Shown piece after piece: positions 9,421-47,033 of a DNA stretch of 64,000 nt. Each line of letters opens with the position of its first letter. Position 1 is the first letter of the stretch. The stretch covers positions 2,542,001-2,606,000 of the forward strand of contig MU004183.1 of the NCBI GenBank assembly GCA_010093605.1, read 5' to 3'. Source of the stretch: Lophium mytilinum (Eukaryota). The notes under the pieces were generated by a model. It had not been told where the DNA came from. It ran no database searches and saw only the letters and a program-made list of their open reading frames with translations. The translations under genes and the position numbers were made by a program.

Positions 9421-9986
9421 CTACAACCTCCTTCCACTCAGCAAGTCCCACATCGGCACTCTCCCACTTGCATCTCCTTCCCGGTTCTCACACCACTGTC
9501 CTTCCCCTTTCTTCCTCTCCACAAAACTCACCGCCGCCCCTTGACAGTCGTCCTACTCTCTCAACCCGGCCACCAACCCCTTCGTCTCCAACTCTAAAAG
9601 CCCATCTCTCAGCCACGTCCGACAAGAGAAATCGCCCTCATGCATGTTCCCTACATCCGGGCGCTCATCGCCAACCTGATACACCGGTACGCCCGCGACG
9701 ATTCCCTCGACATCTTCGATCGAAGCGGTTAATTTGCCAATGAATACCCGCGCAAGCAGCCGCTGTTCAAGGCCAACATCTGGCAACTCGACGTGTTCGT
9801 AGCGCCATAGCTAAGTAGTCTCGCTAGAGGTGTCGAGGGGGGTATTTTTCACGTGGTGCTTAGTTGCTGTGGTGGGTGGTTGGTCCTTGGTACCTTTAGG
9901 GGAGATGTATGCGCGTAGTAGTAGCTTTCCGGGTGTTTGGGGCGGGCGTAGAGGGCGAGTTGGAGGCGGGGCTTATTGCTGGGCAT
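9421..9986 (-). pseudogene. pseudogene paralogous to the 11143-11688 gene (conserved fungal family, tentatively DUF6914)
   Basis: Manual translation: MPSNKPRLQLALYARPKHPESYYYA [frameshift] YISPK...TKHHVKNT...*LWRYEHVELPD...LLARVFIGKL...FSCRTWLRDGLLELE...RE*DD...FVERKK...VPMWDLL. Collinear with the intact neighbour, with one frameshift and two TAG stops. Confidence 0.8.
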
Positions 9987-10084
9987 GGCTTACGGTTTGA
10001 ATTTGAGGTAGAGACGAATGGGGGCGGTATGTTTGGTTGTATGTTTGGTCGCGAGGCGATGAGGGTGGAGGGACGTGGTGGCTC

Positions 10085-10615
10085 CAAGGGCGCGTCTTTT
10101 AAAAAGCAATTTACACGGTTAGAAATGTTACTCTTTGTAACTGAAGAAGGCAAGAGGTGCCCCGACAACCTCCTTCGAACCTAATATCGCAAGCTCGATT
10201 CAGGCGGTCGCGGAAAACAGGTCCAAAAGACAGCTATAATAGGTGCACGCTGCGTGCCCTCCGCGTCGCTTAAAAATTCGATTCACGCGGTCAGAAATGT
10301 AACTCTTTGTAACCAGAGGAGGCAGGATCTCGACCGACACACTCTAACGACCTTTTCTACACCTAGTCCTGTGGACTTGATTTAGGAGGTCGTGCAAACG
10401 GTTAGAAAATTAGCTACTGAATGAGCACGCCACGTGCCCTCCGCGTCTAGCAAAAAATGAGTTGCGCGGTTAGAAATGTGAATTCTTGTAACCAGGGGGG
10501 CAAGCTCTCTACAGATACACCCCCAGCGCCTTCTTTTAAACCTATTACTGCGAGCTTGATTCAGAGGGTCGTGCAAACGGTTGGAAAAGTGACTATGATA
10601 TGTGCACGCCGCGTA
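10085..10615. repeat. degenerate tandem repeat, about 172-180-bp unit x3
   Basis: cggt(t/c)agaaatgt...ttgtaac at 10116, 10288 and 10467. Each unit also repeats gatt(c/t)ag..ggtcg and gcacgc..cgt blocks. Confidence 0.75.
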
Positions 10616-11142
10616 TATACAAGGCACAGTTGGGTCTGTGGCGCGGTTTTCGGAGGCGTGTGCTGATAGGCTGTCGCGCAGTATCAATGATACGAATTTT
10701 ACGGATTCAGAGTGTGGAAGAGTGCAAAGATTGTGAAGGAGCGGGGTGTTGCGGTCTCCGTGTATTCTTGCGGCACAGCTGGCAGGTGCTTCGTGGAACA
10801 AGCGAATCGCCAGCAACCTCGTCATTCTGAAAATGACATGAAGAAGTAAAGCGACACGGAACGATGCATGTTTCGTGAAGTAGAAATGTAGATGTTGTGT
10901 TCAAAACAAGCTGGTCCAAACTTTACAAGCTCAGTGATTTCCAAGACACGCAAAGATTAGGACGTAATCAGAGGAAGAGAAAATCAGTGCTGAAACAACA
11001 TCACGGAGGAAAAGAAAGCGCCGAGAGCTAGAGCATCATCGCAGCCTGGAATTCGGATTATCAGTCCCTTGGTAAATGAAAGATTCTCGCGCGAAGAAAA
11101 CATGCTAACCGCATAAAAAGATATCTACGCCCACCTCCCTGT

Positions 11143-11688
11143 ATGCGTACAACACTGGTTTCCTCTAACAAAGACCGAATCTACATCGCCTTGTATGATC
11201 GTCCCGGGGAAAACCCCAACACCTACCACTGGGCGATTATCGTAGGGCCCAAGAACGAAGTCGAAGGTGGACGAGGTCATCGATATCACGTCAGAGAGCG
11301 GCTCGGTCTTGACAGACCGGGAATATTCAGATGGCAATACGAAGCCGTGGAGATTCCACTGGCACAGACTAATATGCTCCTTGCGCGGGTGATGATCGGT
11401 AAGGTTGCGAATGGAGCCCAGTTGCCCACGACGCTCGCAACAGTGCCCCTCGTGCAAGACAATCCAGCGTGGAGATGCCGTCATTGGGTTAGAGACGCGA
11501 TTGCGGCGTTGGAAGCCGATCGGAGGAGCTTAGGAACAAGGGTGACAGACTGGTCGAAAATTGAGCGCGCGTCGACGGCCTATGTTGAACGGAAGAGGCA
11601 GCAGAAGAGATATGATGGGTCGGGGACATGGAAGGCGGGCACAGTTCCTACCTACGATCTGCTGGAGGAAATGGAAGTCATTCCGTGA
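11143..11688 (+). CDS. conserved fungal hypothetical protein (tentatively DUF6914 family)
   Basis: Motifs SNKDRIYIALY, YHWAIIVGPK, RYHV, WQYE, LLARVMIGKV, CRHWVRDA and VPTYDLL in an intact 181-aa ORF. Confidence 0.8.
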   Translation: MRTTLVSSNKDRIYIALYDRPGENPNTYHWAIIVGPKNEVEGGRGHRYHVRERLGLDRPGIFRWQYEAVEIPLAQTNMLLARVMIGKVANGAQLPTTLATVPLVQDNPAWRCRHWVRDAIAALEADRRSLGTRVTDWSKIERASTAYVERKRQQKRYDGSGTWKAGTVPTYDLLEEMEVIP

Positions 11689-18245: not shown

Positions 18246-20381
18246 ATGGCCAACTCCAGCAGCACAAACACACCTCACAATCTAGGTCCTCTTTGCGAGA
18301 ATTGTCTGCATATATTTAAAGGGCATAAGCGCCTTTACCGGGAAATGATGCTTACGGCCTCCCCTGCGATCAGCTCGCTCGAGCCGCCGCGGTGTCGTGT
18401 CTGTTTGATCATATGGGCACGCCACAAGCGCGCTGTCGAGAAGGCTGAGAGACTAGGAAAGAGGTTCGAAGTCTTCGAAATACTCTATAGGTTCGATCTC
18501 AGTAATGCAGTTGGAAGAAAACTATTTGGATTGGACCGTGGTGATCCATTCAAATTGGAGGAACTGAACCTGAACATCACACTATACGAAGCAGATGGCT
18601 CGTACGAAGTACCTGGCTCGTATGAGCGGTTTAGCCTTGCTATGATTCGTGCTGATGGTAAATACTCATAAAATAGTTCAGCACTCACACATGCTAACAT
18701 ACTACTCTCTCAAGTTGCACAAGACCTCTATGTGGCAGAGCGCCTACCGCCTAGTACAGAATCTGAGGACTCGATAGATTTCTTGAGGTCTCAATTAAGA
18801 ACATGTCGTGAGAACCACCAAGCTTGTCGCCAGAAATCCGATCTAGGAAAGGGGTGGCAGCCAAGCCGTCTACTCGAAATTGGCGGAGCAGAGCATGATA
18901 CAGTATATCTTCGGAATGGGGACAGAGTAACGTCCCAGCCCTACTTCACATTGAGCCATTGTTGGGGGAACATGAAGCCAATACAGCTTACAAGGGAGAC
19001 TGAAGTCTCTCTTCGCACAGGCATCTTGGTCGAAAATCTCCCCAAAACTTTCCGCGACGCGATTTTGATTACGAGGAAACTCTTGGTTCATTGGCTCTGG
19101 ATTGACTCAATGTGTATCTTTCAGGACGATCTTCAGGACTGGAACCGCGAAGCAGTTGCGATGGGCGATGTCTACTCCTACGCGCTTTGCAACATAGCTG
19201 CAACCGGAGCGTTTGATGGGTCCGTTGGATTGTTCTTTGAACGAGAACCGACTGCAGAGTGTGCTTTCTGGGTCGACACGAGCGGTTGTATCTTTTACGA
19301 GGAAGATGGCACCGAATTCCTCCCGAATCCTGCTGGAATCTATCAGCTGTTCCCCATAGATCGATGGGAGTTCGACTTGGAACTAGGCCCTTTGAATAGA
19401 AGAGCCTGGGTCATGCAAGAGCGGTTTCTTTCGACAAGAGTCCTGCACTTCTCAGCCTCTCAGGTGTTCTGGGAGTGCTTGGAGAAAAGCTGTAGTGAGG
19501 TTTTCCCAGATGATATTCCTGAAGTAGCCCAGCCATTCTGGAGTGTAGATGGCCAGCGAGCCTTGAAACAGAACTTTTTTGGGACCCAGAGAGACGATGA
19601 ATGGCAAGAGCGTCTGTATCGGTCATGGCAAGTTTTCGCTAGAGCATACTCCAGATGTGGGCTCACTAAAGCGAGCGATAAGCTTATCGCGATGAACGGC
19701 ATCCGACAGCTACTATCGAGGGTTACTGGAGATAGGCTTATCGGGGGATTATGGAACAGCCACCTAGTTGAGGAACTTTGCTGGATAGCACGTTCCACTC
19801 GTGGTGATGGCGACGCGCAAACGCTTGAGGCTTTCTATCCACAAGAATGGCGCGCCCCGACTTGGAGCTGGGCAAGTACCAATGTGAGAATGCACCCAGG
19901 CAGCATCCGTCATCACATATCGTGCCCAACCTTCCAACAAAAGGTTACTATCGAATCAATCAACGCCGACGCATTTGACTCAGGTGAGCTCAAGCATGCT
20001 TCGCTGAGATTGCGAGGGAAGCTTCTTTACGCGACTGTCGTCATACGAGGGCCTCCATTCGACCTATCGTATACCCATGAGTTTACCTGTGGAAACTCAA
20101 GTATTACGAGGACGTATCACGGTAGCCCCTCGTTCGACTTCACTCTAGACAGTCCAGTCACTCAGCTTCATTCTCGGGAAGCTTTAGTCTGCCTAGGGAT
20201 GTATGCTTGCACTTGCCCAAACCGTGAGCTCGGGGCACTTCTTTTAAGACTTCATGACGCGGGAAAAAACCAGTATGTTCGAGTCGGAACACTCACCGTG
20301 GGAGACGGCTTGGGAGGCGATTACTACGACTTTTACACTGCAAACGAAACGGATATCGAGCACAGTATAGTGATAGTCTAG
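18246..20381 (+). CDS. HET-domain (PF06985-type) heterokaryon incompatibility protein
   Basis: N-terminal CENC...CRVC exon. Intron 18658-18714 (GTAAAT...GCTAAC...AAG) is in frame. Motifs YFTLSHCWG, LPKTFRDAI, WLWIDSMCIFQDD, MGDVYS, PLNRRAWVMQER, DKLIAM, APTWSWAS. Confidence 0.92.
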
Positions 20382-20665
20382 TAGAGAGAACTGCCCTTAT
20401 GCCTCTACTCTAGTATTCATACCATCCTTCGCTGCGCGACTCATTGTTTCGTCCTAGTCTTTCGCTCGTAGCTTTGCTTCCTCGCCGCCCCACCATGACA
20501 TTCTCTTCAATCTTAGCTATATCTCTCCATAGTCATACGTATCCAGTAAGGGCTTCTTCTTCTAGAGGTATGTCTTGTTCGCCTTAACTATAGCCGACTC
20601 TCAACTAACATTCCAGCTAGAAAGTCAGATCCCCTAAAGTCAGATTCCCTAAAGTCCGAGCCACG

Positions 20666-21760
20666 ATGGCGCCGCCATCGAACCAGCAGTCGGCCGCAGC
20701 TGCTAGACGCGCCGCGGTAAGAGAACGAAACAGAGCCAAGCAAGACACCACCCTGGAGGCTCGACAAGCTGCTCGCCTAGTAGATGAGCGAATACCACAG
20801 CTGGCACAGGCTTTAGAGGATGGCATACAATTTGTAGTATCCGCAAGTAGGCTCAATACGTTCATCGAGTCGAAGAATCAATTTATAGAGTGGAGCGAAA
20901 GCGCCGCTCGCATATCCAGCACCGACGCAAATTGCATCTTCCTGCTAGGAGGGCCACCGCTAATGCTAAATGACTGTCATCAGTTCCTTTACTAGTACGC
21001 CCAGAGTTAGTCCGAAAAGATAAAGACTCTAGTAGCTAATGCGTCGGGCAAATTTATATATAGTACTATAACTAAGCCCAGTGTTATTACTATTATAGAA
21101 ACGGCATCTAATCTTAAATATACACACGCATACTTTACCGGGCAACGTCTAAATTAGGACTTAGGCACCCGGCTTTATTAGTAGTTTAAGGGTAAACTGG
21201 CAACATCCTTAGTTCTACCTAGGGATGTAAAAGAGAAGCTTATAGTTTCCCACGCGGATTTTACTCTACTAACTAAGATTCTTTACTCGCCGAAATTCCA
21301 AGCTTTCCACATTTAATACCTAAGGCAGACTCTCCATGTAAATTTGTATATAAATCTCTTAGTCGACCTTACCTACCTATCGCACGAGATTCTAGGTAGA
21401 AGAATCGACGAATCTTTATCTTTCTACTTTACTGCTGTTTCTTACCACTTCCTTATCGTCCCTTACTATTGCACGGAGACTAGGCTGAAACCTATACTCC
21501 ACGGGCGACTAAAGCAACGCGTGGCGGTTAACTAGCTATTTTTTCTAGCTCTAGAGGTACCGAACCCATACTAGGAATGGCTGTAGAATAATTAAAGTTG
21601 TAAGGCTAATAAGCGCTACTTTAGAACGCTTTAACTATAGTTTAAGCCACTACTATATAGCCCTAAATAAATTAAATTAATACTTAAATATGCCCGATCG
21701 GGAAATACTCTAGCGCCTAATAACTACTTTTATATACTTGCATTAACTCTAGAATTATAT
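20666..21760 (+). pseudogene. RIP-degraded tyrosine recombinase resembling a Starship captain (DUF3435); 5' part recognisable
   Basis: One frame from ATG 20666, broken by TAG/TAA stops mostly explicable as RIP of TGG/CAG/CAA: FLY(W)YAQS...KPSVIT...FTGQRL...L..(W)F...L...KEKL.VSHADFTLL..ILY...LRQTLHVNLY.NLLVDLT..SHEI. This matches the recalled captain N-terminal and first catalytic-helix layout. The C-terminal catalytic motifs could not be recovered. Confidence 0.6.
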
Positions 21761-23299
21761 TCTTAGTAAAACTATAATATATACATTACTATATTAGATA
21801 AAGAATAGTTATCCCTTTTTTCTCTTACTATAAAAATTAGTAACGCAGGATAGTAGAGCCTTAAGCTTAACTATAATTATTTCTATATATAGTTTTTATA
21901 ATAGCTATACTATAAATAGCATATTCTCTATATATAATAATAAGCTATCTAGATAAAATAAAGTTCTAAATAGTCTAAATACAACGGAAGTACTTAAGCG
22001 TAAAAAATAGGGCTAGAACTATTAGTTATAGTATAGCAACCGCTATAGAGTTTATAGGGCTAATACCTTAATAATAGCGGAAATACCTTACTATACTAAG
22101 CCTATACGCGAGCATAATACTATAATAATATAGAAATAATATTAAGATATAAAATATATTAAAGTTTAATTACCTTTACTAGTAATATCTTATAAAATAT
22201 ATACTATAAAAAGATAATTTTATTAATTTAATATTCTTTTATACTAAATATTATTTTTACCCTAAATATTATTTTTCTAGTAAATATACTTTTCTACCTT
22301 ACTTATATAAGCTATATTCTTTTCTATTACTTAAGCTTAAAGTTTAGTACCCTATCTACTATACTCTACTATATATTACTACTCTATTATCTATTATACT
22401 ATAGATACTAGACTAGTCTAGAGTAAACTTTCTAAAATAAAAATTATTAAGAAAGATTTAGCCTTATAGTATTAGTATAGTAGTAGATATAGTATTACTA
22501 AAAGAGTAAAAAAGAGATATTTAGAGGTATCTAGAAAATAATACTATAGAATATAGTTCTAGGGGTAAATATAATTTTACTATAAATATTATTTTCTTAT
22601 AGAAAATATATTTCTACTAAAGTATTATAGCTATAACCCGTATAGTTATACTTTCTATTATATAAGCTCTAGAGGAATATTAGCCCGGCCTATAGTCTCT
22701 ACGCCTATATTATAGTATAGCCTCTATTTCTCTTTCTCTAGCTTATAATATCTAGTTACCTCTATATCTACTATTTCTTATAAACTAATATAGATTTATA
22801 ATATAAAGCTCTCTTATAATAGTAATAATATAGTACTATAGTAGATATAAAATAATATAATCTTTTTAAAAGAGGCTTAAGCTATAATACTCTATAGAAT
22901 ATACTTACTAAGATTATTTTAATATTATATTAGTACGCTACTTATACTATAATTATTATAATATAATACTTAAGTATAGGCTTAGTATAGTAAAGTACTA
23001 TATTATGCTAGTAATATAGCTTTAGAGCCTTTATATAGCGGGCCTTCCCTTAAGAAAAATTAAAATTTTTTAATAGCTAGCTAAACCTTAGAGGCTTATA
23101 TAAGTAAGCTTAACTAAATTAGGCTATATTAATCTTAAAGCTTTTAGTACTTCCCTACTAATTTAATTTACTCTATTTAAATTATATAAATACTATAACT
23201 ATATAATATTAATAATATTAAGTAGGGTAATTAATGCGCTATATCTAATAGCTATATATATACTTATTTAGCGCCGCATAACTAAAATTTAACGCTAGG

Positions 23300-23499
23300 T
23301 ATTAGGGCTTAAGGTTAGAACGTTAGAATTATTAAATTAAATAGTATTAATATTAATAAAAAATAAATATAAGAGAGAAAGAGGTTTCTAGAATAGATGT
23401 TATAATAACCTAAAGAGTAGAGTAATATTTACCTATTCTATAGAGCCTCTATTATATAACCTCTAGTTATATATTATGCGCAATTATATAGCTATAATA
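23300..23499 (-). repeat. 3' LTR of element A
   Basis: tattagggcttaagg...gctataata, a direct repeat of 31682-31881 and 61830-62029, adjacent to the PPT. Confidence 0.93.
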
Positions 23500-26400
23500 C
23501 GTCTCCCCCCTCTAAAGAAGCCCCCTAGTTAAAGCTTTTATAAGAGAGAGTTCTTTCTATACTAGAGTATCTATAATTACTTAAATATCTATTAAAGAAA
23601 GTACCTAATTATATTTTTAGCCGTAAGTAAATAAAGGAAATAAATTAATTTATAGAGGATTACTTATTCTTTCTATTTTTATGCAGCCTACTATAGCCTT
23701 ACTATTTTAGTATAGTAGTATTACTATATATAGTATTACTATGCGCAGTATTTATTATGCGTAGTATTACTATATGTAGTATTACTATATATAGTATTAC
23801 TATAAGTAGCCTTATTTATTTAAACTAGGGCCGGCTATAATAGAGCTATAAGAAGCTATATAGCCTTTATAGCTACTATCCCGCTACTAGGTACTTATAA
23901 TAATCTATATTATTATATTACATTAATTATTATATATATCCGCAGTTAGGCCTTCTTAATAAATTAATTTAACCGCTAGTCTAGTAATTAAATTATATAG
24001 CTTCTGCAACGTTAGTTATATAGAGGTTTATAGCAGTAAGAATAGTAGCTAAGGTTAGCTTCTAGTCTAATAGTAGTTAAAATAATAAATAAAGGCCTAG
24101 TTTCTTAGAGTATTAGTAGTAGAAATCTATAATAAGGTGCAGGCAGCTATTAATGTAATTATAGTTATTCTATTAGGGCTTATTATTCTATCTAATAAAC
24201 TTAATCTTATATTATAGTATGCCCCTTTTATCTATAGTAGAGTTAAGTTATCTTCTATTAAAATAGTAGTTAATAACCTTCTTAGCGTTATCTTTCTAAT
24301 ATATTAGCGTTATTTATATAGGCGGAGGCTTAGAATTATACTATTCTTTTATAGGGACTATATTAGCTAGGTATAGTAGCTATAGATAGAAGATAGAATA
24401 TAGATTTTCTATACCCTTAGATAGTTTAAGCTTATATATACTACTATTTTTATAGCTTTCTAGAATCTTAAAGGGGCCTAGCTTTTTAAAGTTAAGTTTC
24501 TTATTTAGGCGGTTTATTTTAATAAACCGTCTATTAAGTATAACTAGTTACCTAGGTAATATATATAAGCTAGTTATTGTTCTATATTAGTATATTTCTT
24601 TTACTTAGCTTAGGCCTATTTAATTTCTATATAGAGAAACGCGCGTAACTTATCTATTCTAGTAATAAATTTATCTATAAGTTTTATAAGATAAATAGTT
24701 AGCGTGTTTATATTTATATTCTTAGGTAATTATATAGCTAGCGTGGTGCCCGCACTAGAAATATAGCTCTTAGTAGCTATAAAGGGTGCTACTCTAGTAA
24801 AGGCGTTCTTTACTAAGTTAGCCTTAAATTTAGTAACGGCGAGAAAGTTATACTAGTTATCTTACTAGTAGTTAATATATACTCTAAGGTACTACTTTAG
24901 GCCTATATTTACTATTTTAGTCTATCTATCTATCTTAGAGTAGAAGGTAGTAGAAAGCTTTAGCTTTATTTTAATACACTTATATAGGCGGGACTAGAAG
25001 GTTAATATAAACTATAACCTATAATTAGATATAATAGATTCTAGATATTCTTTAGTGCGCTAGACCTATTCTAGAAAGGCCTAGGCTACTTCTTTAGCGT
25101 CTATTATTACTATTAAAATAAACTTATGCATTTTAGAGAGTCTATCTATAACTACTATAATATATTAGTAGTCTTATCTAAATTATATATACCTAGGCAG
25201 GGGCCTAATAAAGTTAACTATAAGGTTAGTCTAGTATTACTCTAGAATAGAAAGTAGTTTAAAGAAGCCTTATTTTATATTATATACGTACTTAATATAA
25301 TTATATAGCTAGTAAGCTTTAATATAATAGTTAATATTATAGGTTATCTATAGCTAGAAGTAATATATTAAAACCTAGTTATATATAGATGTAGTTCTAC
25401 TATAGCTAATAGAGGGAGGTTTATATAGACTCTTAATAATAGCTAATTAGAGTTTCTCTTTAGTAGAAATATATAAATAGTTCTTCTAAATAAAGATAAG
25501 GCTATTATAAATTATATAGTTATAGAGCTTAAGCTTAACGCTGTAATTTTTAACTATATTAGTAGGTAGGCGGCGTAGCTTAGCTCTAATAGTATCTTTA
25601 ATAGCGTTACTAATAGTATTATTAATAAGGGCTTCTTATATATAATTTACTATATCTTACTCTATAGTACTATTAGTAGAGTTACTCTATAACTCCCTCT
25701 ATCTTAGTAACTTCTATAGTTCTTTATTAAGGTTACTCTAAGACTCCCCCTAATTAAGTTCTACTTTACTAAGGTTATATATTATTACTATAAGAGAGGT
25801 AATATTATAAGTAACACTATTAGTTATAATATAGGCTAGTTTAATAGCGTAGCGCATACTAGATTTAAGATTATAGTTCTTAAGAATAGTTTATTACTAG
25901 ATTTTATAGCGCTTATTATTCTAATTTAGTATATTACCTAGGCGCCTAGTTAGTAAATTAGCCTTACTATTATTCTTACCTAGCCTGTAAGTAATCTAGA
26001 AGTTAAACTTAGAGAGAAATTTAGCCTATCTAGCTTATCTATAATTAAGCTACTTAGTTTCTATAAAGTACTATAGCGTCTAGTAGTCTAAAAGAACTTT
26101 ATTAGAGTTACTATAGCTATAACTAGTAAGTTCTATATACTATTCTTTAAAGGCGCGGATAATTGCTAGAAGTTCTTTATTATAAATTTAATAATTTAGT
26201 TAGGCTGCGCTTATTTAGTAAGATATAAACGCAATAGAATAAAAAACACTATTAGCTTATATTTAAGATAGTATAGTAGCTATAATAGTATTAAATGCAT
26301 TATATTCTACCTAAGTCTCTAGATCTAGATTAAAGTGGGCCATCTAAAAAGTATTAATAAACGCTTATTTTATCTACTTAAAGAAGAAGTTCTTTAAGCT

Positions 26401-29400
26401 ACCTTTCTACTATAGGAAGATAAACTACTTATAAACCTCTACTCTAGTAAGTCTAGTAAGCGGCCCTATAATATTAGAATAGGTAATAATAAATTATTAG
26501 TAGAAGTTATAGAAGCCTAGAAAAGCTTATATATTATAGAGGTTCTATAGTTATAGCTAGTTAATAACTATCTTAACTTTAGCTAGGTCTATCTTAAGGC
26601 CGTTAACGCTAATAATAACGCCTAGGTATTTAACCTTCTATTTATAGAACTTACATTTTATAATATTAAAAAATAGGCTAGCTTTATAAAGTTATTAGAG
26701 GACTTTCTTAATATAACTAATATATTCTTTAAGCGTTTTACTAAAGATAAGAATATTATTAAGGTAGGCTATATAGAAGGTATCTAAATATTCTAAAAAG
26801 ATATTATTAATAAAGGCTTAAAATATCGCTAGGGCATTATATAAGCTAAAGGGTAGGACAGTAAATTTAAATAGGCCGTATCTAGTAAAAAAGGCCGTGT
26901 ATTTCTTATCTTCTTTACGCATTCTAATCGCGTTAAAGGCAGTAATAATATTAAATTTAGTATAGTAGCAAGCATATTTTAGTAATACTAAAGTGTTCTT
27001 TATAGCTAGTAGAATATTACAGGCCTTAATAGTAATAGCGTTAAGGCTATAGTAGTTAATATAAATATAGAGGCCTCCTCTAGATTTATAGATAATAATA
27101 ACTAGAGTAGTATACTAACTATTACTTTTTCTAATATAGCCTTTACTATACATCTTATTAATAAATATTTTAATAACTAGTATCTTGTTCTATAAGAGTC
27201 TATAGACTTTATACGCTAGTGCCTTTATTTCTAGTTTAATATTAATATAATAGTTAATATCTATACTATCTTTTACTTTTTAATATAGTAGTAGCTTATT
27301 AGCTTCCTTTAGGTCCTATATATTAAGGAAGCTATAGTATTTTATAGATACTAATACTTTAAGTTTATTATAGGTTATTAGTTTACACTCTATCTTCTTA
27401 AAGAATTTCTATTAGTTATCTTTTAATATTGCGTAGAGACTAATAGCTACTAGGTTATTTATAAAATTAGCTAGACCTAAAATAATATTGCTAGATTTAT
27501 ATAGGCGTCTATTAGCGCGCGCCTAAGCTTTAGCTTTCTTATTAGTAAGTACTAGTTTAAAGTATTTAGGCTATATATAGATAGTATCTTTCTCTAGTAA
27601 CTACTAGAAGTTATATAAATATTTATTACTAGATACTATATTAATATTAAGTGCTTTAAAGGTAGTAAGCTAAGCGTTAAGTTTCTATTAGAATAGGCGC
27701 TTACTAGTATAGGTAATAGAGTTCTTAGACTAGATATAGACCGGTTTATAATTAACTAGATACTAAGAATAGTAGTAGTCTAAATCTAGCTATATTATTT
27801 ATATACTAAACTTTATATAGGCGTTGTATATTATAAGCTAGCCTATGCCTAAAATAATATTATAGCCCTTAAAATTATAGATTAGGGCCTAGAACTTATT
27901 ATAGTAGCCTTTAATCTATATAGTAACTTTAGCTGCCTTATTAATAACTAATATAGAACTATTTAGTAGTTTAATATTACGTAGAGTAGCTTTATAGATA
28001 TTAAGCTTATATTATTTTATAAAGCTTATAGAAATAAATATAAAGCCGCTATATCTAGAATCTATAAGAATAGTTAATTTAACTATTCTAGTTAAAGTAA
28101 TAATTTTATAGTTAAAGTCTATTTACTTACTAGAGAGAGGAGTAAGACTAATAGCGTATATAGATAGCTTAATATTAGGTAGTTTTAGAGGAGGTAGCTT
28201 AAGTTCTTAAATATATATAAAACCTTAAGCTAGCGTATCTTCTAACTATCTCTAATAATAACTTTTATTAGAGATTAAGTATTTTCTAACTTATTAGAAT
28301 AGACGGCTTTATTATTACTATCTTAGTCTTAGTTATTCTTATATTTATACTTATACTAGCACTCCTAATTACTACTATAGTTAAACGCGTTAAGTTCTAT
28401 ACTATTAATACTAGTAGTAGTAAGGCGCTTATTATACTAAGCCTCTAATATAGTCTTTCTAGCTATAGTGCATTTAGAGTTGCTAGCGCGGTAATTCTTC
28501 TTAAAGTAGCTAAAGCAGCGTCCTTTCTTACTTAGGCGTAGATAAATATATAGTAGAACGCTTAGCAATAGAACTATAGTAGTCTTCTTAACTATAATAT
28601 AGTTATTAGTCTTACTAATAAACTGCTCGCGTTAGATATAGTTTATATTGCGCTAGCTATTCTATATATATATATTATTTAAGCGGCGTACTAAGATCTA
28701 TATAGTAAAAAGCTCTTTATTAGCTTATTTTTCGCGTTAAATATAATAATAGTCCTTATATAGAATATTATCTTTTACCTAGTACTAGGTTAATAGACTA
28801 AAGTTAATATATTTAGTAAGATCTATATATAGTATTTCCTTAAGGTAATAGTATTAAGTTATAAGGCTATTATTAATTTTACTATATTTAAGTCTATTAA
28901 GAATAATATTAAGATATTATAGAAAGTTAGACGTCTTTTTATTATATTACTATTTTATACCCTTACTATTAAGTTAGTTAAGAAGGTAATTATAATAAAT
29001 AGCGTTACTTTCTTAAAATATAGTATCTAGGTTCTAGATAAGTTTCTTAAGTAAATAATATAGGTTTATAGATGTAAAAAGACTATAGTCTTTAATAACT
29101 TTATATGCGCGTCCTTTATAATAACTAATAGTAAGTTAAATTTAAGTTATAGTAGTAGAGTAAGTCTACTAGTTTACTTAGATTAGGTAGATTAGATAGT
29201 TCTTCTAGGCTATATATACTATAGCTTCTAATTTAAAATCCTAAAAATATATATATTTAAAATAAGGGCCTTATTATCTAAATTAAGAATAGACGGGCCT
29301 ATAGACTTATAGCTAGGTAAAACCTTTTAGTTAGCTTAAATCTAGGTTACCCCCTCCTTCTCTAGCTATAAAGTATTAGCCTAGAACGCAGTTATATTAG

Positions 29401-31681
29401 AAGTTATCTAGGTTAAGAGTATATAGACCTACTAGTAGTAGAGAAGAAGTATTATTAGTAGAATTATAATTAGAGTATTTATCCGCGTATAGATTATTAG
29501 ATTATCCCGCTAATATATTCTATTAGGCTTAAGTTTTAAGCTAGGTAATTTATATTAAGGCCTATTAGTGTCTAGCTTAGAGGTTATTAAGCTAATAGAT
29601 TTAGGCTTAGAAGTTAGCGTGCTTTTTATTACGTAGGCGATATATATAGGCTAACTCTATCTATTTAGACTTAAGTTTATAGTTAAGGGTATAGACTTAG
29701 GTCTAAAGCTTAGTAAGTTTACTATTAGTAAGTAAATACTTTTTATTTAGCTCTTTAATATTAGCGTTAGTAGTATTCTATTCTTAGGTAGTAATATTTA
29801 TTCTATACTTATAATTACTACTATTTTAGTAAGCTAGTATAATATAGTTCTACTACTATTCTAGTATAAGTTAAATGTCTTTAATAAGATTCTATAGACC
29901 TTATAGTTTATATTATTAGTAGACGCCGTCTCTATAGTATATCTTAAAGATAGAGCTATTAGCGCGCTATATAATTATAAGATATAACTACTATTAGTCC
30001 TCTATATATATTATAGTATAGTATCTATTACTCTATTCTATACCCGCTGCTTACTAGGCTAGGTTAGAAGTATTAAGTCTAGTAATAGATTTAACGCAGG
30101 TAGATTAGTATTATAATAGAGATATATTAGGTAAGAAAATACTATAAATAGGTAGTATTCTTAGATACTTAGAATTACGGGACTAATATAGCTTAGAAAT
30201 AGTATTATAGTACACTATAGCTTCTAGAGTATTAATAGTAACGCCTTAATAGGCTATTTTAAGCTTATTAACTTTATTATCCGCGTTATTACTAAACTAA
30301 TATTCCTCCTTCTAACGGTTATATTTATTAGCGGAATTAAAGTTAGAGGAGAAGTCCTTATTATAGGCGGCAGTTATATTATTAAGGCCGGCAGTTATAT
30401 TATTAAGAATAGGTAAATTAAAGTCGCCTAGTATATAGCTACTAATATAAGAGAGTAGAAGTATAGTTTTCTCTACTATAGTTACTACTAGAGGAGCTAG
30501 AGTAATTAGTATAGATTTACCTATAGTACTAAACTTAGTCTAATAATATTATAAGTCTACGGGTATTACTAGAGAAACTAGTCTAATAGATAGAGTTAGT
30601 TAAGAAGTAGTAGCTAGTATCTATAACTAGAATTAAGTCGCGCCTTAAAAGGGTTAGTTTACTAGCTAAATAAGAGAAGGCTATAGCCTATAATTAATCT
30701 ATATTATATTATTATTATTATCTTCTATAAGTAGGTAGTATAAGTTTAGGGCGCCTTTCTATTATAATATAATGCGGCGGGGGTTAATAGAAATACTATT
30801 AGTATTACTTAATAGGCGTCTAGTAGTAAATTATCTACTAGAGATAGAGTTGCTAAACTATAGAGCTTTAGCGCGGTTAAAAGTATAGTAGTTAGAGTTA
30901 GCTATATAAGTAGAAAAGGTTAGTATAGAAGAAAAAAAACTTAAAGAGGTAAGGTATTAAATTTATATATAAGGGCCTATTAAATTTAAATTATTTACTA
31001 TATACGCCGGGCGCCTAGAAGGTTTAAAAGGGGCGCTAGTTATACTTAGTAGCGGGACTACCTAGAGGGTTATAGTAAATAGTAATATTAGGTAGTCTAT
31101 TTATAAAACGGGTAGTATATAGAAAATAGGTAGTATATAGAAAATAGATAGTCTATAGATATTTATTCTATAATACTAAGTATATATATAGGCTAGCTAT
31201 TATTAATACTAAGCTTTCCGGGCGTTAGTCTCTATATAGTAATAGTAATTAATTAGTAATACTAGGCGCGCGTATATACTATTATCTATACTAAGCTTTC
31301 TAGGCGTTAGTCTCTATATAGTAATAGTAAATAGAAGAAGAAGTTATAGAGCTATTAAAGTAATTAATAATTAGTAGGGACTTTCTAGAGTACTACTACT
31401 ACCCCTCTATTATAGGGGCTTATTATAGAGTATCTACTATAGTTATAAGGTCTATTACCTAATATTACGCATAATAGTTAAATTACTTTATTAGAGGCCT
31501 GCGGCGCTACTAATAGAATACTATATTAGTATAGTCTTTATTAGGGGTCTATAACTCTACTAATAGTTACTATATAGAAAGGTATAGATATTCTATAGCT
31601 TATTATAAAAGCGCACTCTATTATAGAAAATTTCTAGGGGTGCTTCTATTGCTTCTAGAAGCTAGAAGGGTATTTATTTTA

Positions 31682-31881
31682 TATTAGGGCTTAAGGTTAG
31701 AACATTAGAATTATTAAATTAAATAGTATTAATATTAATAAAAGATAAATATAAAAGAGAAAGAGGTTTCTAGAACGGACGTTATAATAACCTAAAGGGT
31801 AGAGTAATATTTACCTAATCTATAGAGCCTCTATTATATAACCTCTAGTTATATATTATGCGCAATTATATAGCTATAATA
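31682..31881 (-). repeat. 5' LTR of element A
   Basis: 200-bp copy that differs from 23300-23499 mainly by transitions. Confidence 0.93.
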
Positions 31882-32133
31882 CTAGAGGCTCTAAAGAATC
31901 TATTACTATATTTTATTCTTTTAGATACTTAATATAGTGCCGGATAATAATATTAAGAAATAATACTAGTGCGCTATAGAGCCTAGATCTTCTATATTTC
32001 TATAGATATAGCTACTAACTAGCTAATAGCTTTATATATAAATAACTCTATTACTTAATACTACTTCTTAATCTCTATTTTATTTAATAGCGCGGCTATT
32101 AAATATCTATAGCTAAGTTTACTATATATATAT

Positions 32134-32335
32134 TATAACGGATCTAGCTCTATATATATTACGTGCCCTTAGCTACATTATATAAGCCTGTACGCTAGCG
32201 CGGTTTTACACCTCTAGCCTATATTTAGCCTGCACCGCGTAGAACCTCTACCTTTATATAACTTTATCTTTATAAATACACCCTATTTCTTATTTAATAC
32301 TATACTCCGTGCCTTACCTCTTATAGTCTATAATA
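32134..32335 (+). repeat. 5' LTR of element B
   Basis: tataacggatctagc...gtctataata, repeated at 39809-40010. Confidence 0.92.
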
Positions 32336-35300
32336 CTATAAAGTTGCTCTATCTAGCTACTATCTACTAGGTTCTTAAACTATAATCTACTACTAGTAAA
32401 CTATAATACTCTATAATTACCCCGCGCGGCTATTAATACTATAGCTAACAACCCCCTTAGTATAACTAGTATATAAAAGCTTTAAGACCTTCTTTTATAG
32501 CGCACTATTCTTATACCCTTAGACTTCTAGGCCTTAACTTAGAACTTCTAGAACACTAACACTACTAAGAAATCCTAGATAATTACTAGAAACTTATAGC
32601 GCGCGCGCAGCTATAATAATAATACCTAAGACAACCTTACTAAAGGCCTTACTAAAGGCAATACTATTCTTAAAGATAATAAGCTTTAGAAACACCCTAA
32701 TTAACCTAACTCTAGTAGCTATATCTACTACTCTAAGATACCTAGCGCCTTTAAGACTTCTATCTTTAAAGTAAATAAGCTTATTAATTATTCTACTATT
32801 AATAAGTAAAATACTAATAAAGCTCCCGTTATATATAAAGTTCTAGACGCTAAAGCCTTTATAGACTTTATTACTAAAAATAAGGTAATAGCCTTTAAAT
32901 TAACCCGTTTATATAAAGCTAAGATCTATTAACTATATAACTATCTTAAGCGTAATAAGGCCTCTATAGAGGCTTAGGCTAAGCTTAATAAGTAAGCTTA
33001 TAATATAATTAAGTAATAAGATAACTACCTCTAGGCCGTAAAAGATAATATTAAGTAGCTAGAAAAGACTATTACTAATATAAAATTTAAATACTAGTCT
33101 AACCTTTCTAACCTCTATAATAACCGCAATAATACTATCTAAGATAAAGATAACGCTATCTACGCTAGAAACGCTAAAGATAAAATTATATATAAATACG
33201 TTACTAATATAGTAGTATTTACCGCCTAGATAGATACTATTAACGCAATAGTAGTAAAGTGTATTACTAAGCTTAAGGCCTATAGTAAAGCTTTAGCTAA
33301 GCGTATTACTAAGCTTAAAGCCTATATTAAGAATATTAAAAAAGCCCTTACTACTACTAAAGTCTATATTAATAGTCTCTAGAATACTACTATCTATAGC
33401 TCTATAGCCCGCGCTAATAGCCCTCCCCCTAAAATTACTACGTAGCTTACTACTACTATAAGCTATTAATATAAGCTTATAGCCTATATTATAGCTAAAG
33501 AAGGCGCTAAGCCTATACTACGCCCTTCTATTCTACTAGCTAGCTGTAACTATTTACGCGGCTATAACTACTACTAACTAGAACCCTTACTACCCTGCCG
33601 CCCTAATAAGCCCCCCTATACTTAATAGAACTATCTATACTCTACCAGGGGTAGTAATAAACCCCCCTCTAATTCTAGTAATAGTAATAATAATAAGGAC
33701 TCCCGCAACTATAACCTAATTTACGCCTTTTAACTGCGTACGCTACCTTATATAGAACTAGATAGCGCTCTACTACCTCCGTATAATATTAACTGCGGAA
33801 CCCGCGCTAATTAGAATAAAGATAAGACTATACTATACCCTTCTAAGTATAATAGTAATAAAGCTAAATATATTACCTAGTATTACTAGGTTCTTAGTAA
33901 GTTTACTTATAGTAGCTGCCTCTACTAATATAATAAAGGCTTCTACCTCTACTTTCTTAGTATATATCTTACTAGCATACCTCTTAGTAACTATATAGCG
34001 TAGATAATAGGCTATTAGCCCTTTTACACTCTTAATAAAGCTATTAAGCGCCTTAATATTAAGAACCTACTATATAACCCTAAAGCTATTACTTTCTAGT
34101 AACTTAACTAACTAATCTAGGGTAATAATAACCTTAATATATTCTATATAAAATACTAAGTACTTATAGCATAACTATTAAACTAAAAACACTATTAGAA
34201 TATTACCGCGCTTAAGGTAAAGATCCGCCCTAGTATTACTAAGTCTACGGGCGTTCTAGGGAAACATTATAAGAAAGAATATAAAGTTATTAATACTTAC
34301 TACAACTAGCTTCTAGACTAAGCTATAGTTAACTATACCTAGCTATACTAACTATATAACTAGCCTAGATAGTATAGCTAATAGCCTAATAACTTCTAGA
34401 CTAATAATAGCTATTATAGTAGCTACTGCAGTAACTACCTATAGAACCCTTCTAATTAAAACCCCGCTAATTAGACCCTAATAGGTTAATTTTAAGCTAC
34501 TTAGAATTAGATCTCTTAGAATTAAGGCTACTAGAATAACTAGAGCTAAGAATAAGGCTAGAATATAATAAATACGCCTAGCTAGAATTACTAGATGTCC
34601 GCGCTATAGATATATAAAGCTATAAACTTCCCCGTTAATATTTCTACTAATTAGCAGCACCCTGCCCTAGGCCGCCTCTTAGATAATTAAAAGCGTTAGC
34701 TTATAAGTAAGAACTATTACTTCCGCTACTAACTTATAGGCTATACTTCTACTAACTAGTAGTACTCTATAGAGCGCTCTATACTTGCCCTATATAGTAT
34801 TAGCACGTATTCTAATAATATTATAACTCTAGCCCTATCTATATATACCCTATTTATATACACGCCCCTATTTATATATACTCTATCTATCTATATACCT
34901 ACTATATTTACTCTAGCTTCTACTAAAGTAGGTATTAATACTTCTATCTTATTTAGAGGCGCAGAAGGACTATTTATAGGCTATAGCTAACCCTAAAACT
35001 AGAGCTATTCCTACTTAAAAAATACTTAGTTCTAGATTATAGTCGCGATCTAGGGCGTATTATTACTTAAGTAGTCTAATACTATAAAAATAAAGAATCT
35101 ATACAGTTATAGTTAAGAAGGTTAGTTATTTTAGCTACCTCTCTTAGTAATAATATTTAAGCGGGTTAAACTAATAAAAAGACCCTCTATAGCTTTCTAG
35201 TTCTAGCTAAAGTCTAGCATTTCTATAAAGAATAACTACTAGATATAATTAAAGAATACCTTTATAGTAATACTAGAGTAACTAATAAATTTATAGATAC

Positions 35301-38300
35301 TACTTACGCGTACTAAATAAACTTTTCTACCCGCCCCTTACCTAAATTATATACTCTTAAACTAGTAGATAGATCTACTATTACTAAGAAGATTACCTAT
35401 AAAGCCCTTATTTCTATTACTATCTAAGAATACTAGAGCCGTAAATAGGCCTATATTATAGACCTAGGCGATTATAATATTATTTTAGAACTCTACTAGT
35501 TCTAATACTATAACCTAGCCGTTAACTAGGTTACTAGCTAGCTTAACTTTATAAAGGAAAAATATAATAGAGTCTTTTATAAATACTATTACTATTATAT
35601 TAATAACGCTAATATAGCTATTATATATACTAAAGAATTAGCTCCACCTAATTTTATATATAACTATAATTATATTCTAATATTCTTTAATTCTATATAC
35701 TCTATATAGAGAATAGGCGTTATAGCTTACCTTACTATGCGCCGCATAGCCGCTATTAAAGGAGATTAGCTTAATAACTTACCTTAATATATTACTGCCA
35801 ACCTTACTAATACTAGCAAAAACTTCTTACTCTATTCTAACTACCTCTAGGTTATAGCCCTATAAATAAGTAATATACCTATCTACCTCTATAAACTAGC
35901 TATATATAATATTAAGAAGTTTATAGAAATTAAGTAATATTACACTAAAGAGAAGATATTTATAAAACTTCCCTCTAGCCTATATAAATATATTTATATA
36001 TTTAACTAAGTTAATATAGATATACTTCCTCTATATAGACCCGGTATTAACTATAAAATTAACTAGGTTAATAGCATTAACCTTAGTAAGCTACCTAAAG
36101 CCCGCCTATACCCTATATCTACTAATAAACTCCGTATTATTAAGAAATAGCTTAATAATAATCTAGCTAAGAGCTATATTAGATAATTATAATTATAAGT
36201 CTCTTTACCTATCCTTCTTATACGCAAGCCGGGGGGCAGTATTTAGTTCTATATTAACTATAGAGCCGTTAACGCCCTTACTATTAAAACTTATTATTCT
36301 ATACCCCTTATATAAGAGATACTTTACTATTTTAGAAAAGCTAAGTAGTTTACTAAGCTTAATATTATTACCGCTTTTAATAAAGTCTATATAGCCCTAG
36401 GCTATAAATATAAAATAGCTTTTATAACCCGCTATAGTAAATATAAGTCCCTTATTATACTCTTTAGTGTTATAGGGGGGCCTAGAACTTTCTAGTTCTT
36501 TATTAACCGCACGCTATATAATTTCCTTAATAAATTCTATACTATATATCTAGATAATATTCTTATTTATATAGGGGGTTCTAAGAAAGATTATAAGGCC
36601 TATATAGCCGCTATTCTTAAATATTTAGAGGCCGTAGGCCTATATATTAACTTATCTAAGTACGCATTTAACTAGAAAGAAGTTACCTACTTAAGCCTAA
36701 TAATTTCTACTAATAGAATCCGCATAAATCTAGAAAAAGTTGCCGCTATTCTTAAATAGAATACTCTAACCTGTATTAAGAATATCTAAGCCTTTATTAG
36801 GCTATTTAATTTCTACTAGTAATTTATCTATAAATTCTCTTATATTATTAAACCGCTTACTAATATAATAAAGCTCTAAGAGGAATAGAAGAAAGCCCGC
36901 TTTTTATAGATAGAGGCCTATAAAAAGGCCTTCTACGCGCTTAAGAAAGTATTTATAGAAGTACCCGTCCTAATATACTTCTAATATAGTAAAAAGGTCT
37001 TTCTTAAAATAGACACTTCTAATTATATAATAGCCGGCGTTATATTCTAAATTAGACCTAATAGCCTTCTATATCTAGTTACCTTTTTCTCTTTTAAAAT
37101 ATTACTAGCTAAGTGCAACTATAAGATCTATAATAAGGAACTTCTTACTATAGTTAAGGCCTTTAAAAAATAGAGACCTAAGCTTATAAGCGCTAACTTT
37201 AAAGATCTAACTAACGTCCTTATAGATTACTATAATCTTAAGTAGTTTATAACTACTAAAAAACTTAACCGCCGCTAAGTATACTAGGTAGAGTTTCTTA
37301 CTAGATTTAATTTTAAAATTATATACTATTCTAGCGTACTAGAGGGTAAATCTAATAGCCTTATGCGCTATTTATAAGACCTACCTTATAGGCCTAATAA
37401 TCTATAAAATTAATTCTAATATTAAACTATACTTAAATCTTATAACCTTAGGCCTAGAGTTACGCTAAATAGTAAATTACCACTCTTACTAAATAACGCT
37501 AAGCTAAGTAAGCCTAGCTCTCTCGGGCTGTTCTACGCACTTTACTAAAATAGGCTACTTCCGTGCACTAAGAAACTTAAACCTCTTCTAATAACCTTAC
37601 TATAATCCTCTCTTAAAATATATTCTCTCTTCCTTTTACCTCTTTAACTCGCCCCCGCTAGGCTGCGCAGCTACAACTATGCTAGTAATAATAATAGTAA
37701 TAGTAATAGAAGCGCTAATAAGGCTTTTACGGCGCTACCTAGTAACGCTAATAAGATTTTTACAGCTCTATTAGCTAATAAGAATATTATAGCTGCTAAT
37801 AAGGATATTATAGTATAGCTAGTTTAAGGTAATAATAATAATATTAACTATAATAATAATAATCTATAATACCTTATTAATAAAGCCTATATATAACTAC
37901 TACCCTCTAAACTTCTATATAATTCTATACTATATAAGCTTATAGATATTATCTAAAGCGGCGCCTACTTCTTTCTAAAAGCCCTCTATAACCTTATTAG
38001 CAACCTTAATATTAATAGTTTTAAAATACGGGATAACTAACTATACTATTATAATTATCTATATATACTAGCCTATAACTAGCTATATACTAAGCTACTT
38101 AGCCTCTCTTATAATACTTCTATTACTAGCTACCCTAGTAAATATAGCTTCTATAAGTTACTCTAACGCTACTACTTTTAGCCTAACTTCTATAATAATA
38201 TTAAACGCTATATAGGCGCCTATTATAGCTACCGCTAAGCTAAAGCTTTTTAAGATAAATAGTAAGAACTACTCTATAGCCTTAATACACCTAATAAGTA

Positions 38301-39808
38301 ATAGATAGAAATTACTATAGATTTTATTACTAACCTACCTCCCTATATAAGAAACAGGTAAATATATACGCTTATTTTTATTATAGTTAACTAACTATCT
38401 AAGAAACGCTACTATATCCCTATAACGGGCGATATAGTAAAAGATATAACTAACGCCTTTATTTATAAGATATTCTAGTTATATAGTCTACCTAAGATTA
38501 TTATTAGTAACTGCGGCGTATAGTTTATATCTACTATATAGCGCCGCCTATATAAATACCTTAGTATTAAGCCTAAGTTTTCTACTACTTTCTATTCTAA
38601 AACTAATAGCTAGACTAAAAACGCTAACTCTATTATAAAAGCCTACCTACGTTAGTTTATTTTATATTACTAGGATAACTAGATTAACTATCTCCCCCTT
38701 AGTAAATTTACTATTAATAACTATAAATTAGCCTTAATAGGCTTTACTCCCTTCTTTACTACTTGCGGTTTCTACCTATAATTAGGTATTAAACCCTCTA
38801 TACTAGTAATAGGGCGCGCTATAGTATATAATAAGTAGCTACTAGCTAACTAACACGCTAATTAGATAAAAGAGATTCTTATAGAATGCCGCTAAGCTAT
38901 TACCTAGGCTATAGCTGCCTAAGCTTACTTTATAAATTAATATTATTAACTACTACCTTATCTTAAGGTAGATAATCTAGTCTAGCTAGATGCACGTAAT
39001 ATTAAAACCTAACGCCCTAATTACTTACTTAACTATAAGAATCTTAGCCTATTTTATATTACTAAAGTTATTAATTAGAGTTATATCTTTTATTTTAACT
39101 TTATAGAAATATTACTTAAAGAATATTATATATATAATATCTTCTATTCTTACCTACTCTATCTATTTAAACCTAGGCCTATACTAGATTAAAACCTACC
39201 GCTACCCCCGCCTATATAGGTTATTAACCCCTATAGAATAACTAATAATAAATAAGATTACGTTAATATATAGCTAATTAATTTTATTATAGATAGCTAC
39301 TAGCTGCAACGCGGCCGCTATAGATATAAACTATAATACCGCGCCTAGTATAAAGGTTATACTAAGCTATAAATATAGTAGAACTAGACTAACTTTAGTA
39401 AATATAGCGCTAATAAGCTTATTAGTAAATTCTATTACTATTACCCTAACGCCAACAGCCCTTATCTAGATTTTAGGCCTAACTCTAATTAGTAATAAGT
39501 CCTTAATAAGCGCGCGCTTATAATTTATAACGCGCGTGTTTATTAACTCTACTTATATATCTTATATAGTAATATTACAATATTATTTATAACCCTAAGA
39601 ACTAGATTCTCTACTATATCTAGCTAGCCGAGCTATCTTAATAGAAACGCCTACCTTTATAACGCCGTAAGCACGCCCCTTTCTTATGCGGTCCTTATTT
39701 AATTACTTATAACTATATTTTCTTAGTATTTTATTTTAGTCTCTCTTTATAGCTTTACTATATAGCCTTTTCTTTCTATAGCCTTTCTTCTTTATTTTAG
39801 GGGGGTAG

Positions 39809-40010
39809 TATAATAGATCTAGCTCTATATATATTATATACCCTTAGCTATATTATATAAGCCCGTGCGCTAGCGCAGTTTTACACCTCTAGCCTATATT
39901 TAGCCTGCGCCGTGTAGAACCTCTACCTCTACGCAACTTTATCTTTATAAATACACCCTATTTCTTATTTAATACCGTGCTCTATATCTTACCTCTTATA
40001 GTCTATAATA
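39809..40010 (+). repeat. 3' LTR of element B
   Basis: Follows the polypurine tract and matches 32134-32335 apart from transitions. Confidence 0.92.
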
Positions 40011-43000: not shown

Positions 43001-44070
43001 TAAAAGAAAGAGAATTATAGAGATTAGCTATAAGTATAGCCTAAAGAAGCTATATTATATTAAAGTTATAGGCTAATATTTCTCTAGCTATATATAGTTA
43101 AAATAGTAAAAATTTTAATAAGAAACCTTAAGTTTTTATAAAGAACTTAAGGTTTCTTAGTAATCTTACTCTCTTACTATATACAGTTAGGTACGCTTAA
43201 AATAGCTAATCTAATTACTAAGATTAAGCGATTTTCAGACGGAAGGCCCGCTGTACAAAGGCTCTTTTTACCGCGCCCGAGCTACGCCAGAACTAGAGAA
43301 GCTGGGTATGCACGTACTTCACCAAGTTGACTTGGTGGTTTCGTTCAGCACCGTTCTGCTGATTAATGCATACTAGGTCGATCTAAAATGCAAGACTTGA
43401 ACGGCCTTCTCAAGTCCGGTTCGTGGAAGATTGCTTGGCACTTGCCTGTAAAGAATATGACGAAGCCAAATCACTTATAATACTTTGCTCGCGACTTCCT
43501 TCCATTTCCAAAGCCCTCCCCCATCATGCTAGACAGGCACCATGTCGCCATCCTTGCCGCTGCTGCTGAGCTATTGCATTCGTGAAAGTATGGCGATGCC
43601 GGCGTGAGCACTGCCAACGCCGGCCGTTTGTCTCCCGCTTAGCTGGTTGTTGTTAGGGGTCCTGAGCTGTGGCTGAGCTGGGGTGAATGGGTTCCGAGGC
43701 GAGGGTGAGCAACCCGGGCGGGGGTTAGGGCCTATATCTACAAGGGGAAGGCGCAAGGCTCCAGTCGCACGTGGCGCCGCGGAGGTCGGCAAGGCGCGAA
43801 GTCTTGCCCTAACAACTTTTTATCTCGTGCACGCCTTTGAAACTGGAGGATTCCCGACTGTGAACTCTACTGAAATCTGTCTCTGACTTCCCCTCGACTT
43901 TCAAATATGGCATATTATGCACCAAAAGTTTTGGAAACGATCAGCATTGACCCTATTGGTCAACAGGCACTGCACAGCCACGTCTGTGCGGTGACCGAGA
44001 TCATAAAGTTCTGCATCCCCCTCAGCCTGATTCCTTGAAGCAAATTCCCAACCGACTCGTTTGCTCCAAG

Positions 44071-45615: not shown

Positions 45616-47033
45616 AAGATAAGACAACCGTCAGAGTCGTTATTATGACCGACCAGCATTTAGACCTGTACCTGGTGCCCGGTGATGTCAATGCTTTCCA
45701 CCGTCGTTGTAAAAGAGCCTGGGTCGACTTCAACTATGACCCTAGAAATCACCAGAGTGATCCAATTCCGCTTCTGCTCCGCGAGTCATGGACAGGGCTC
45801 GGTCGAGATAAGGTCCTTGGGCCGTTCTACGATATTGAACCTTTGTCCAGATGCTGGCATGTACCACTAGTCAAACATATTGATTCGAAACCCTCCAGGG
45901 CTTCGAGACCCCCTAACACTATCTCAATAGTCCGTGAGTAGTATCAATGAAAGGATGGTCTATACTAGTAGAGCTAATAACATCTTCTAGACTGGGATGG
46001 CCAAACAACGAGCTTTGTACCCCAAGCCCAGAGCATTTGACCGTCATGACGCACTGACGAGCAGACCAAACGCAAACACATATTTCTGGGGCCCTCTCCC
46101 ACCACTGCATCTTTTCAGCACTCCATGGTTCCACTGTACCGAGACGGCGAAGAGCTCGAGACAGCGCGATATCATGTTCATGCCACGACCTCATACATTA
46201 CTACGCAGCGGGTCGCCTCATCAAAACTCGTCACCGGGACTCCGATCGCGAAGTTGATAATTATCGGCCATTTTCTATGCTTTTCCGCTCTTAGAATACC
46301 CCTCTTGCACCCTCCCAACGAACGGGCATAATGCTACAAAACAGTGGCATGATTACGGCACCAACACATGCGCAACTTTCACCGTCAGCCGGGATCATAC
46401 GTGAAGGGAAAATCAACGCAAATGTTTCCACGCCACCATGATACTTCAGAGAGCACAGTTGCGTCCCCAATCGGTATGTAAGCCTTGGAATGAAAGAAAA
46501 CCCCTTGCAGATCTCCCCGCCGGCCCGTCGCCAAGTGTCTGAACGATACGTTCGTGCGACTTTCCAAGAAGGCCAAGAGCGGAAATGCGAACCTGCCACG
46601 ATCCTGTGGGGTATGTTTCTAGCCTAAGGCGCACTATAACTGCTCAAGTGGTAAGCTTGAGGTGGGTCGTGTTTCATTCTTCGCTTCCGATGAGCCTTTG
46701 CCAGTTACGTTGGACGCGCAATGGTGAAAGCTGGAGATGAGTTCGGTCTCCATCTCGTGACAAGAAAGTTGCTTGCAGTCTCGATGGGTGAATAATAACG
46801 GTAAAGCGAAGCAGACGTCTTGGAGTTTGGGAAGTGGCTATGCTAAAGGCCAAGATAGGCGAAAATACGAGAGAATATGTTGGCTTCTTCGCTGAGGTGT
46901 GGGGGCCAGAAGCCCGCATATGCAACCTGATGCGGGTCGATATGCAACACATAGATGGACCGATGGCACCTGACACCTTGATGTTTCAGGCCTTTCAAAG
47001 TTGGATTGGCCAATCTCATAGCTAACTTGAGCT

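Follow-up and report, generated by a model that had tools for sequence, protein, structure and literature searches.

A RIP-decayed, transposon-interrupted candidate recombinase pseudogene in a subtelomeric accessory region of Lophium mytilinum

A decayed gene in a subtelomeric accessory region of Lophium mytilinum, at positions 20666-22085 of a 64,000-nucleotide stretch of DNA, may best be read as the pseudogene of a solo DUF3435-type tyrosine recombinase, or as a stranded 5′ remnant of an element that was lost long ago. We place the probability of this reading at roughly 0.47. The whole stretch (hereafter the window) corresponds to positions 2542001-2606000 of contig C3 in a genome of 43.4 Mb in 49 contigs, and telomere repeats close this contig at 2,719,435, which puts the locus about 157 kb from the telomere. 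When alive, the enzyme would have excised and re-integrated DNA through a tyrosine-DNA intermediate, as is established for the family, and its death would have come through RIP and the insertion of a TA-flanked transposon and a second TIR element (element C) into its 3′ part. RIP-killed, transposon-interrupted recombinase-like relics have been described for many ascomycetes; the decayed gene would be one more such relic, and its significance is correspondingly low.

The decayed reading frame and its dispersed paralogues

The upstream neighbour of the decayed gene is an intact HET-domain ORF on the forward strand (18672-20381; PF06985, E=1.5e-27). Its stop at 20381 had been placed correctly in an earlier note on this DNA, and the ATG of the decayed frame lies 284 bp further on, at 20666. 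The TA fraction rises directly after the HET stop and is 0.50 in the forward-strand spacer of 284 bp between the two (20382-20665), a value matched by one of 750 non-RIP windows; either mild RIP or an AT-rich UTR may account for it. Neither a terminal repeat nor a TTAC site was found in this spacer. It also contains, on the forward strand, a 49-nt GT..AG segment (20568-20616) with consensus donor, branch site and acceptor, of a pattern that occurs twice in 38,000 nt of non-RIP host DNA. The earlier note had called this segment a likely 5′-UTR intron; its signals bear this out as far as a prediction can, and make such an intron probable. With the predicted intron spliced out, an ATG further upstream (20495) is not in frame with the one at 20666.

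The decayed frame has a coding origin. Its first part (20666-21765, forward strand) is nearly untouched over codons 1-109, and its 13 in-frame stops, all TAG or TAA among 365 codons, fall within codons 110-335, whereas 2000 dinucleotide shuffles gave an expectation of 25.6 ± 4.5 (P=0.003 for the observed 13). For the damaged part alone, 12 stops compare with 20.3 expected from shuffles (P=0.025). The absence of TGA is unspecific, since the other five frames of 20996-21763 hold 0-1 TGA. These counts, together with a jump in the TA index near 20980, confirm the RIP-type decay that had been proposed for the frame from 20666.

The remnant had been taken to end at 21760. It probably continues, likely in another frame, to a transposon insertion at 22086. 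In its RIP-saturated second part on the same strand (21766-22085), the +1 frame holds 3 stops in 80 codons, against 16 in 81 for the original frame and 10 in 81 for the third, and when RIP was simulated on eight host ORFs, +1 came out as the likelier coding frame past 21765 by a factor of about e^6. Because the stop counts favour this frame, the reading is probably shifted near 21765, either by an indel or by an intron that may span 21766-21808. With the transposons removed there is room for 473 codons between the ATG and the first insertion, and no C-terminal continuation was found in the un-mutated host DNA at 43269-43950.

Two further copies are present on contigs C10 and C17. C10:129181-129930, within a remnant at C10:129178-130551 (region 129.0-130.6 kb), matches residues 142-245 of the window frame; in searches of the 43-Mb genome, the E values were 2-6e-4 each way. 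The Smith-Waterman score of this pair is 92, compared with 32 ± 4.8 and a maximum of 63 in 3000 shuffles, and RIP-aware scoring gives 118 against a null of 32. The C10 remnant, which directly follows a DUF6604 gene, carries frameshifts and TGA stops at near-normal GC and lies outside any RIP block. Its 3′ part identified a truncated fragment at C17:423839-424435, with 76% DNA identity over 316 bp. The DNA of the window remnant is single-copy in the genome, no similarity of the window frame to C10 or C17 is detectable after 21400, and no second remnant was found in the 237 kb to the telomere.

These comparisons support assigning the window frame to a dispersed, dead, RIP-killed gene family. All three copies (C3, C10 and C17) are broken or truncated and no intact one was found in the genome, which is the pattern expected of a mobile-element gene. 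Alternatively, the decayed gene may never have been a recombinase: it would then be an unrelated, dispensable gene from a small family specific to the lineage, and RIP that leaked out of neighbouring transposons would have killed it. Single-copy remnant DNA suits such a gene, but the death or truncation of all three known copies does not, and on balance we consider this origin rather unlikely.

A HET stop on the same strand precedes two of the three copies, by 284 bp in one and about 340 bp in the other, and the third is situated about 2.3 kb ahead of a HET ORF. The remnants could represent a divergent lineage of tyrosine recombinases that favours sites beside HET genes and has no relative detectable among 1.84 billion representatives; with three copies in a HET-rich genome to judge the adjacency by, we regard this as very unlikely. 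If it were true, such a HET-adjacent recombinase element could have helped to spread the HET genes of this genome, and an adjacency that reflected targeting would offer a mechanism for their expansion.

Transposon insertions and the extent of RIP

AT-rich DNA with strong RIP indices forms two blocks in the window, at about 21-43.3 kb and from 61.1 kb onward. The remnant is interrupted by a TA-flanked TIR element (22086-22995), which is Tc1/mariner-like by its TA duplication and has copies on several contigs. Separated from it by 26 bp of host DNA is element C (23024-43265), a TIR element with TTT on both sides that carries two nested, RIP-degraded LTR elements, A (23300-31882, with LTRs of about 200 bp) and B (32131-40023). 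The second block opens with an apparent hAT-type element (61084-73369, where positions past 64000 are extended coordinates), recognised as such by its short TIRs and exact 8-bp target-site duplication; within it, at 61830-70438, LTR element A occurs a second time, with 85% identity to the first copy. Both AT-rich RIP blocks are self-contained, ordinary insertions, and neither is retained as the end of an element.

Element C has further copies at C14:445925-489399 and C11:1361699-1362266. The C14 insertion is 43.5 kb long and has both ends and about 3.5 kb in common with element C; it has the appearance of a TIR transposon enlarged by insertions nested within it. The C11 copy is internally deleted to 570 bp.

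Within the remnant, TA/(TA+CA+TG) lies at 0.2-0.3 up to about 20980, where it jumps to 0.7-0.8, and beside 22085 it is as high as 0.94, against a background of 0.25 ± 0.09. RIP covers about 1.1 kb of the remnant, whereas it ends within 200 bp at the seven other transposon edges tabulated and at three block edges. Because those edges show no leakage and the remnant is nevertheless covered, the pattern suggests that the gene was once repeated by itself. The gradient would also fit one-sided leakage from the adjacent repeats, such as the available portion of a report on Leptosphaeria describes (PMC2973834). A fall in RIP with distance from repeats is the leakage signature published there, and it would suit an unrelated gene as well, although the other transposon edges measured show no leakage. 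Whether the remnant was repeated or RIP leaked, the genes at 43-61 kb lie outside the RIP event, which stops abruptly at about 43.3 kb (43265) and leaves these genes, the putative cargo discussed below, un-RIPed.

Recombinase identity and candidate catalytic sites

Among the possible origins of the decayed gene, a DUF3435-type tyrosine recombinase ranks first and is, in our judgment, a probable one. We infer this identity, and the former mobility of the gene, from the dispersed dead paralogues, from motif positions and from a catalytic-box pattern defined post hoc. The earlier note had reported a match of the RIP-reverted frame to the DUF3435 captain N-terminus, which searches with the unreverted frame did not confirm: read with X at its stops, the window frame has no match in Pfam, NCBIfam, PHROGs or PDB, and phmmer against 1,835,955,588 representatives found none. 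Three word searches with the window frame and the C10 remnant returned no relatives, nor did plasmid, metagenome and viral collections yield any for the remnants, and the C10 and C17 remnants have no match in Pfam or, searched as two stop-free paralogue pieces, in the atlas. The PF11917 profile matched nothing in the genome itself at E<=0.001, with controls silent, and both this and the Pfam search, having X at stops, are of low sensitivity on RIP-damaged sequence. Two AlphaFold models (pLDDT 34.9 and 31.5) were too poor to use, and Foldseek gave no meaningful match. The uniformly blank database, fold and atlas searches favour an unrelated gene.

Some individual matches were dismissed as chance. 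These are the sub-threshold PF11917 candidates L028 and L029, candidate L009, a weak DUF3435 match (E=0.023) on a coiled-coil ORF at 53371-55197, and a tblastn match at about 96.7 kb.

At 21362-21388 on the forward strand, the frame contains the arrangement V-D-x3-[238]-x2-E, a shape that we take to be the first catalytic box. The earlier note was right that codon 238 (21377), where it expected Arg, reads CTA. Under C>T/G>A changes, CTA derives only from Leu or Pro codons, so RIP cannot account for the lost Arg at this codon; codon 237 is TAC, which is Arg-compatible under the same changes. Site 1 reads Tyr/Leu (237/238), and Lys is found at 275 and 283. The aligned first-Arg position is Ser in C10 and is Arg in neither aligned copy, as would be expected if the gene were unrelated. 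Against that origin stands the positional fit to the spacing of tyrosine-recombinase sites: codons 237/238 of the putative box agree with column 247 of the alignment whose sites are given, in the accessible part of Table S5 of PMC11162782, as columns 247, 303, 428, 431, 456 and 466.

A box-II-like, RIP-compatible pattern lies further along the forward strand (21929-22046), beginning at codon 422, which corresponds to column 428. Defined after the sequence had been seen, as Y..R(+3)..[M/L]G-site5(+28)..Y(+38) with one slip allowed, it was found a single time in the candidate (codon 422), compared with 5 times in 142,094 positions of RIP-saturated DNA and in 16 of 3000 shuffles; the corresponding chance probabilities, which share this post hoc definition, are about 0.001 in frame and 0.011 in any frame. 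The M/L-G term is an assumption on our part, and when it is dropped these values rise to 0.09 and 0.5, respectively. The pattern also needs sites 3-4 in the frame that the stop counts disfavour (likelihood ratio of about e^6), and a one-frame alternative with spacing 3/27/37 requires non-canonical transitions. The C10 remnant has no match to the box-II template. Judged by eye, all three remnants presumably resemble captain sequences; neither a zinc finger nor a chromodomain is recognisable in the window remnant.

The subtelomeric position would also suit the relic of a telomere-linked helicase (OrsD/DUF3505) recombinase-fold gene. However, the N-terminus has no zinc finger, and when both remnants were compared by tblastn with 3 kb at each of the five OrsD loci, no match reached E<=1, which leaves this origin extremely unlikely. 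The five OrsD (DUF3505) loci of the genome have open frames of 156-858 aa.

The Starship question and known systems

The decayed gene had further been proposed to be a Starship captain inserted just after the HET stop, at the left edge of an accessory region, with the genes at 43-61 kb (up to about 74 kb) as cargo of a giant element. We consider this distinctly unlikely. The un-RIPed host genes at 43269-61083 comprise a HET gene at 43951, a DUF7730-like gene, a GNAT gene at 52896 and a GTPase module with a P-loop GTPase-like ORF at 55-56 kb. The HET, GNAT and GTPase-like genes named as cargo are thus present, but the ORF named as Hsp70 has no Pfam match.

The proposal agrees with some features of the locus. 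The decayed gene points toward the 44-61 kb genes, an inward orientation like that of a captain, and the raised TA content begins where such an insertion would. Published distances between direct repeat and captain are about 350-960 bp in three paired rows, so that 284 bp would be tight yet possible. HET domains occur in Starship cargo according to the part of 10.1101/2021.12.13.472469 at hand, and nested transposons gather just behind the captain in Starships described in the available text of PMC13486527. Moreover, a GYF-domain gene at 76-79 kb (extended window coordinates) would give a natural right limit, and an element bounded by it would measure no more than about 54 kb, 33 kb of which are later insertions.

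Other evidence argues against the proposal. Direct and inverted repeats of 11-14 nt between 20341-20665 and 82 kb of host DNA to the right are not above chance (at 11 nt, 9 were found and 12.3 expected), and this search, in a size range above the 2-6-bp repeats that are callable only with an empty site, leaves the element ends undefined. DUF3723, ferric reductase, patatin and NACHT/NLR companions, which typify Starship cargo though they are not obligatory, are absent from the ORFs scanned to 137 kb (21, 83 and 61 ORFs), a scan from which RIP blocks could hide degraded copies, and DUF3723 was not found genome-wide, with a silent control. The sharp end of RIP at 43265 shows that the putative cargo was not duplicated along with the remnant. 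No Rfam match was found in the window, and hence no 5S rDNA target.

GC is 0.51 on both sides of the supposed left edge near 20382. A Pfam scan found DUF7730, DUF6914, DUF3176 and HET genes to the left of 20381 as well, and genes of a conserved type are interspersed with them, for example a fungal TACC gene and ribosomal L13e, the latter 7 kb upstream of the window. The two sides of 20381 are equally accessory-like. HET-domain matches number at least 152 genome-wide (with 150 of 274 candidates scored), a large expansion that likewise counts against reading a HET gene here as cargo. A Starship that begins near 20382 and carries the 44-61 kb genes is unsupported, and in our estimation improbable; we do not class the locus as a Starship, and the decayed gene cannot be linked to any cargo, ends or element. 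If an empty site were to prove the cargo, the result would be one more derelict Starship, with an Hsp70-GTPase module.

Other features of the surroundings may be recorded here. The DUF6914 genes form a divergent pair at 9556-11688, in which about 350 bp around 10091-10614 match each other at 69%. Just upstream of the HET ORF at 43951, a 10-bp inverted repeat encloses about 170 bp of GC-rich sequence (approximately 43648-43817), and no copies of this unit were seen in the genome comparison. The subtelomeric stretch at 94-137 kb in extended coordinates holds an LGFP-repeat gene, a Dyp peroxidase, a HET gene and a PepX-like peptidase, a histidinol-dehydrogenase/cupin/SDR/Zn-cluster group, a haem peroxidase-P450 and a Tle1-like phospholipase domain.

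The preferred reading, that of a solo or stranded recombinase gene, can be set beside several known systems. Its RIP gradient resembles that at AvrLm6 of Leptosphaeria maculans, where the portion of PMC2973834 available describes a one-sided TpA excess over about 1 kb beside a heavily mutated repeat; unlike that case, no leakage is seen at the other transposon edges that were measured here. With the solo and pseudogenised DUF3435 (PF11917) genes of Pezizomycotina the remnant would share its nature as a single gene of about captain size, its dispersed and diverged paralogues, its accessory region and element ends that are not detectable. It differs from them in having no PF11917 or other sequence match, and its membership among them is our inference. 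Solo DUF3435 genes outnumber captains (PMC12134995), and sequences in the accessible part of PMC11162782 average 464 aa at the clade level and 588 aa at the family level.

Captains, the DUF3435 recombinases with which Starships begin at their 5′ end, have been shown to mobilise these elements, and Starships are RIP targets, according to the available parts of 10.1101/2022.08.04.502770 and PMC11162782. The remnant differs from the captains HhpA (Hephaestus) and Kirc (Enterprise) in that no direct repeats, TIRs or companion genes were found with it and in its catalytic residues, which do not read as intact. It is like them in its sensitivity to RIP and in candidate site positions that roughly fit the captain alignment. 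In its fate it may be likened to genes in the consulted portion of PMC8092012, which describes a pseudogenised solo homologue in Podospora and a Kirc captain that, in one strain, is degraded and broken by several transposons, much as the remnant here is degraded and transposon-interrupted.
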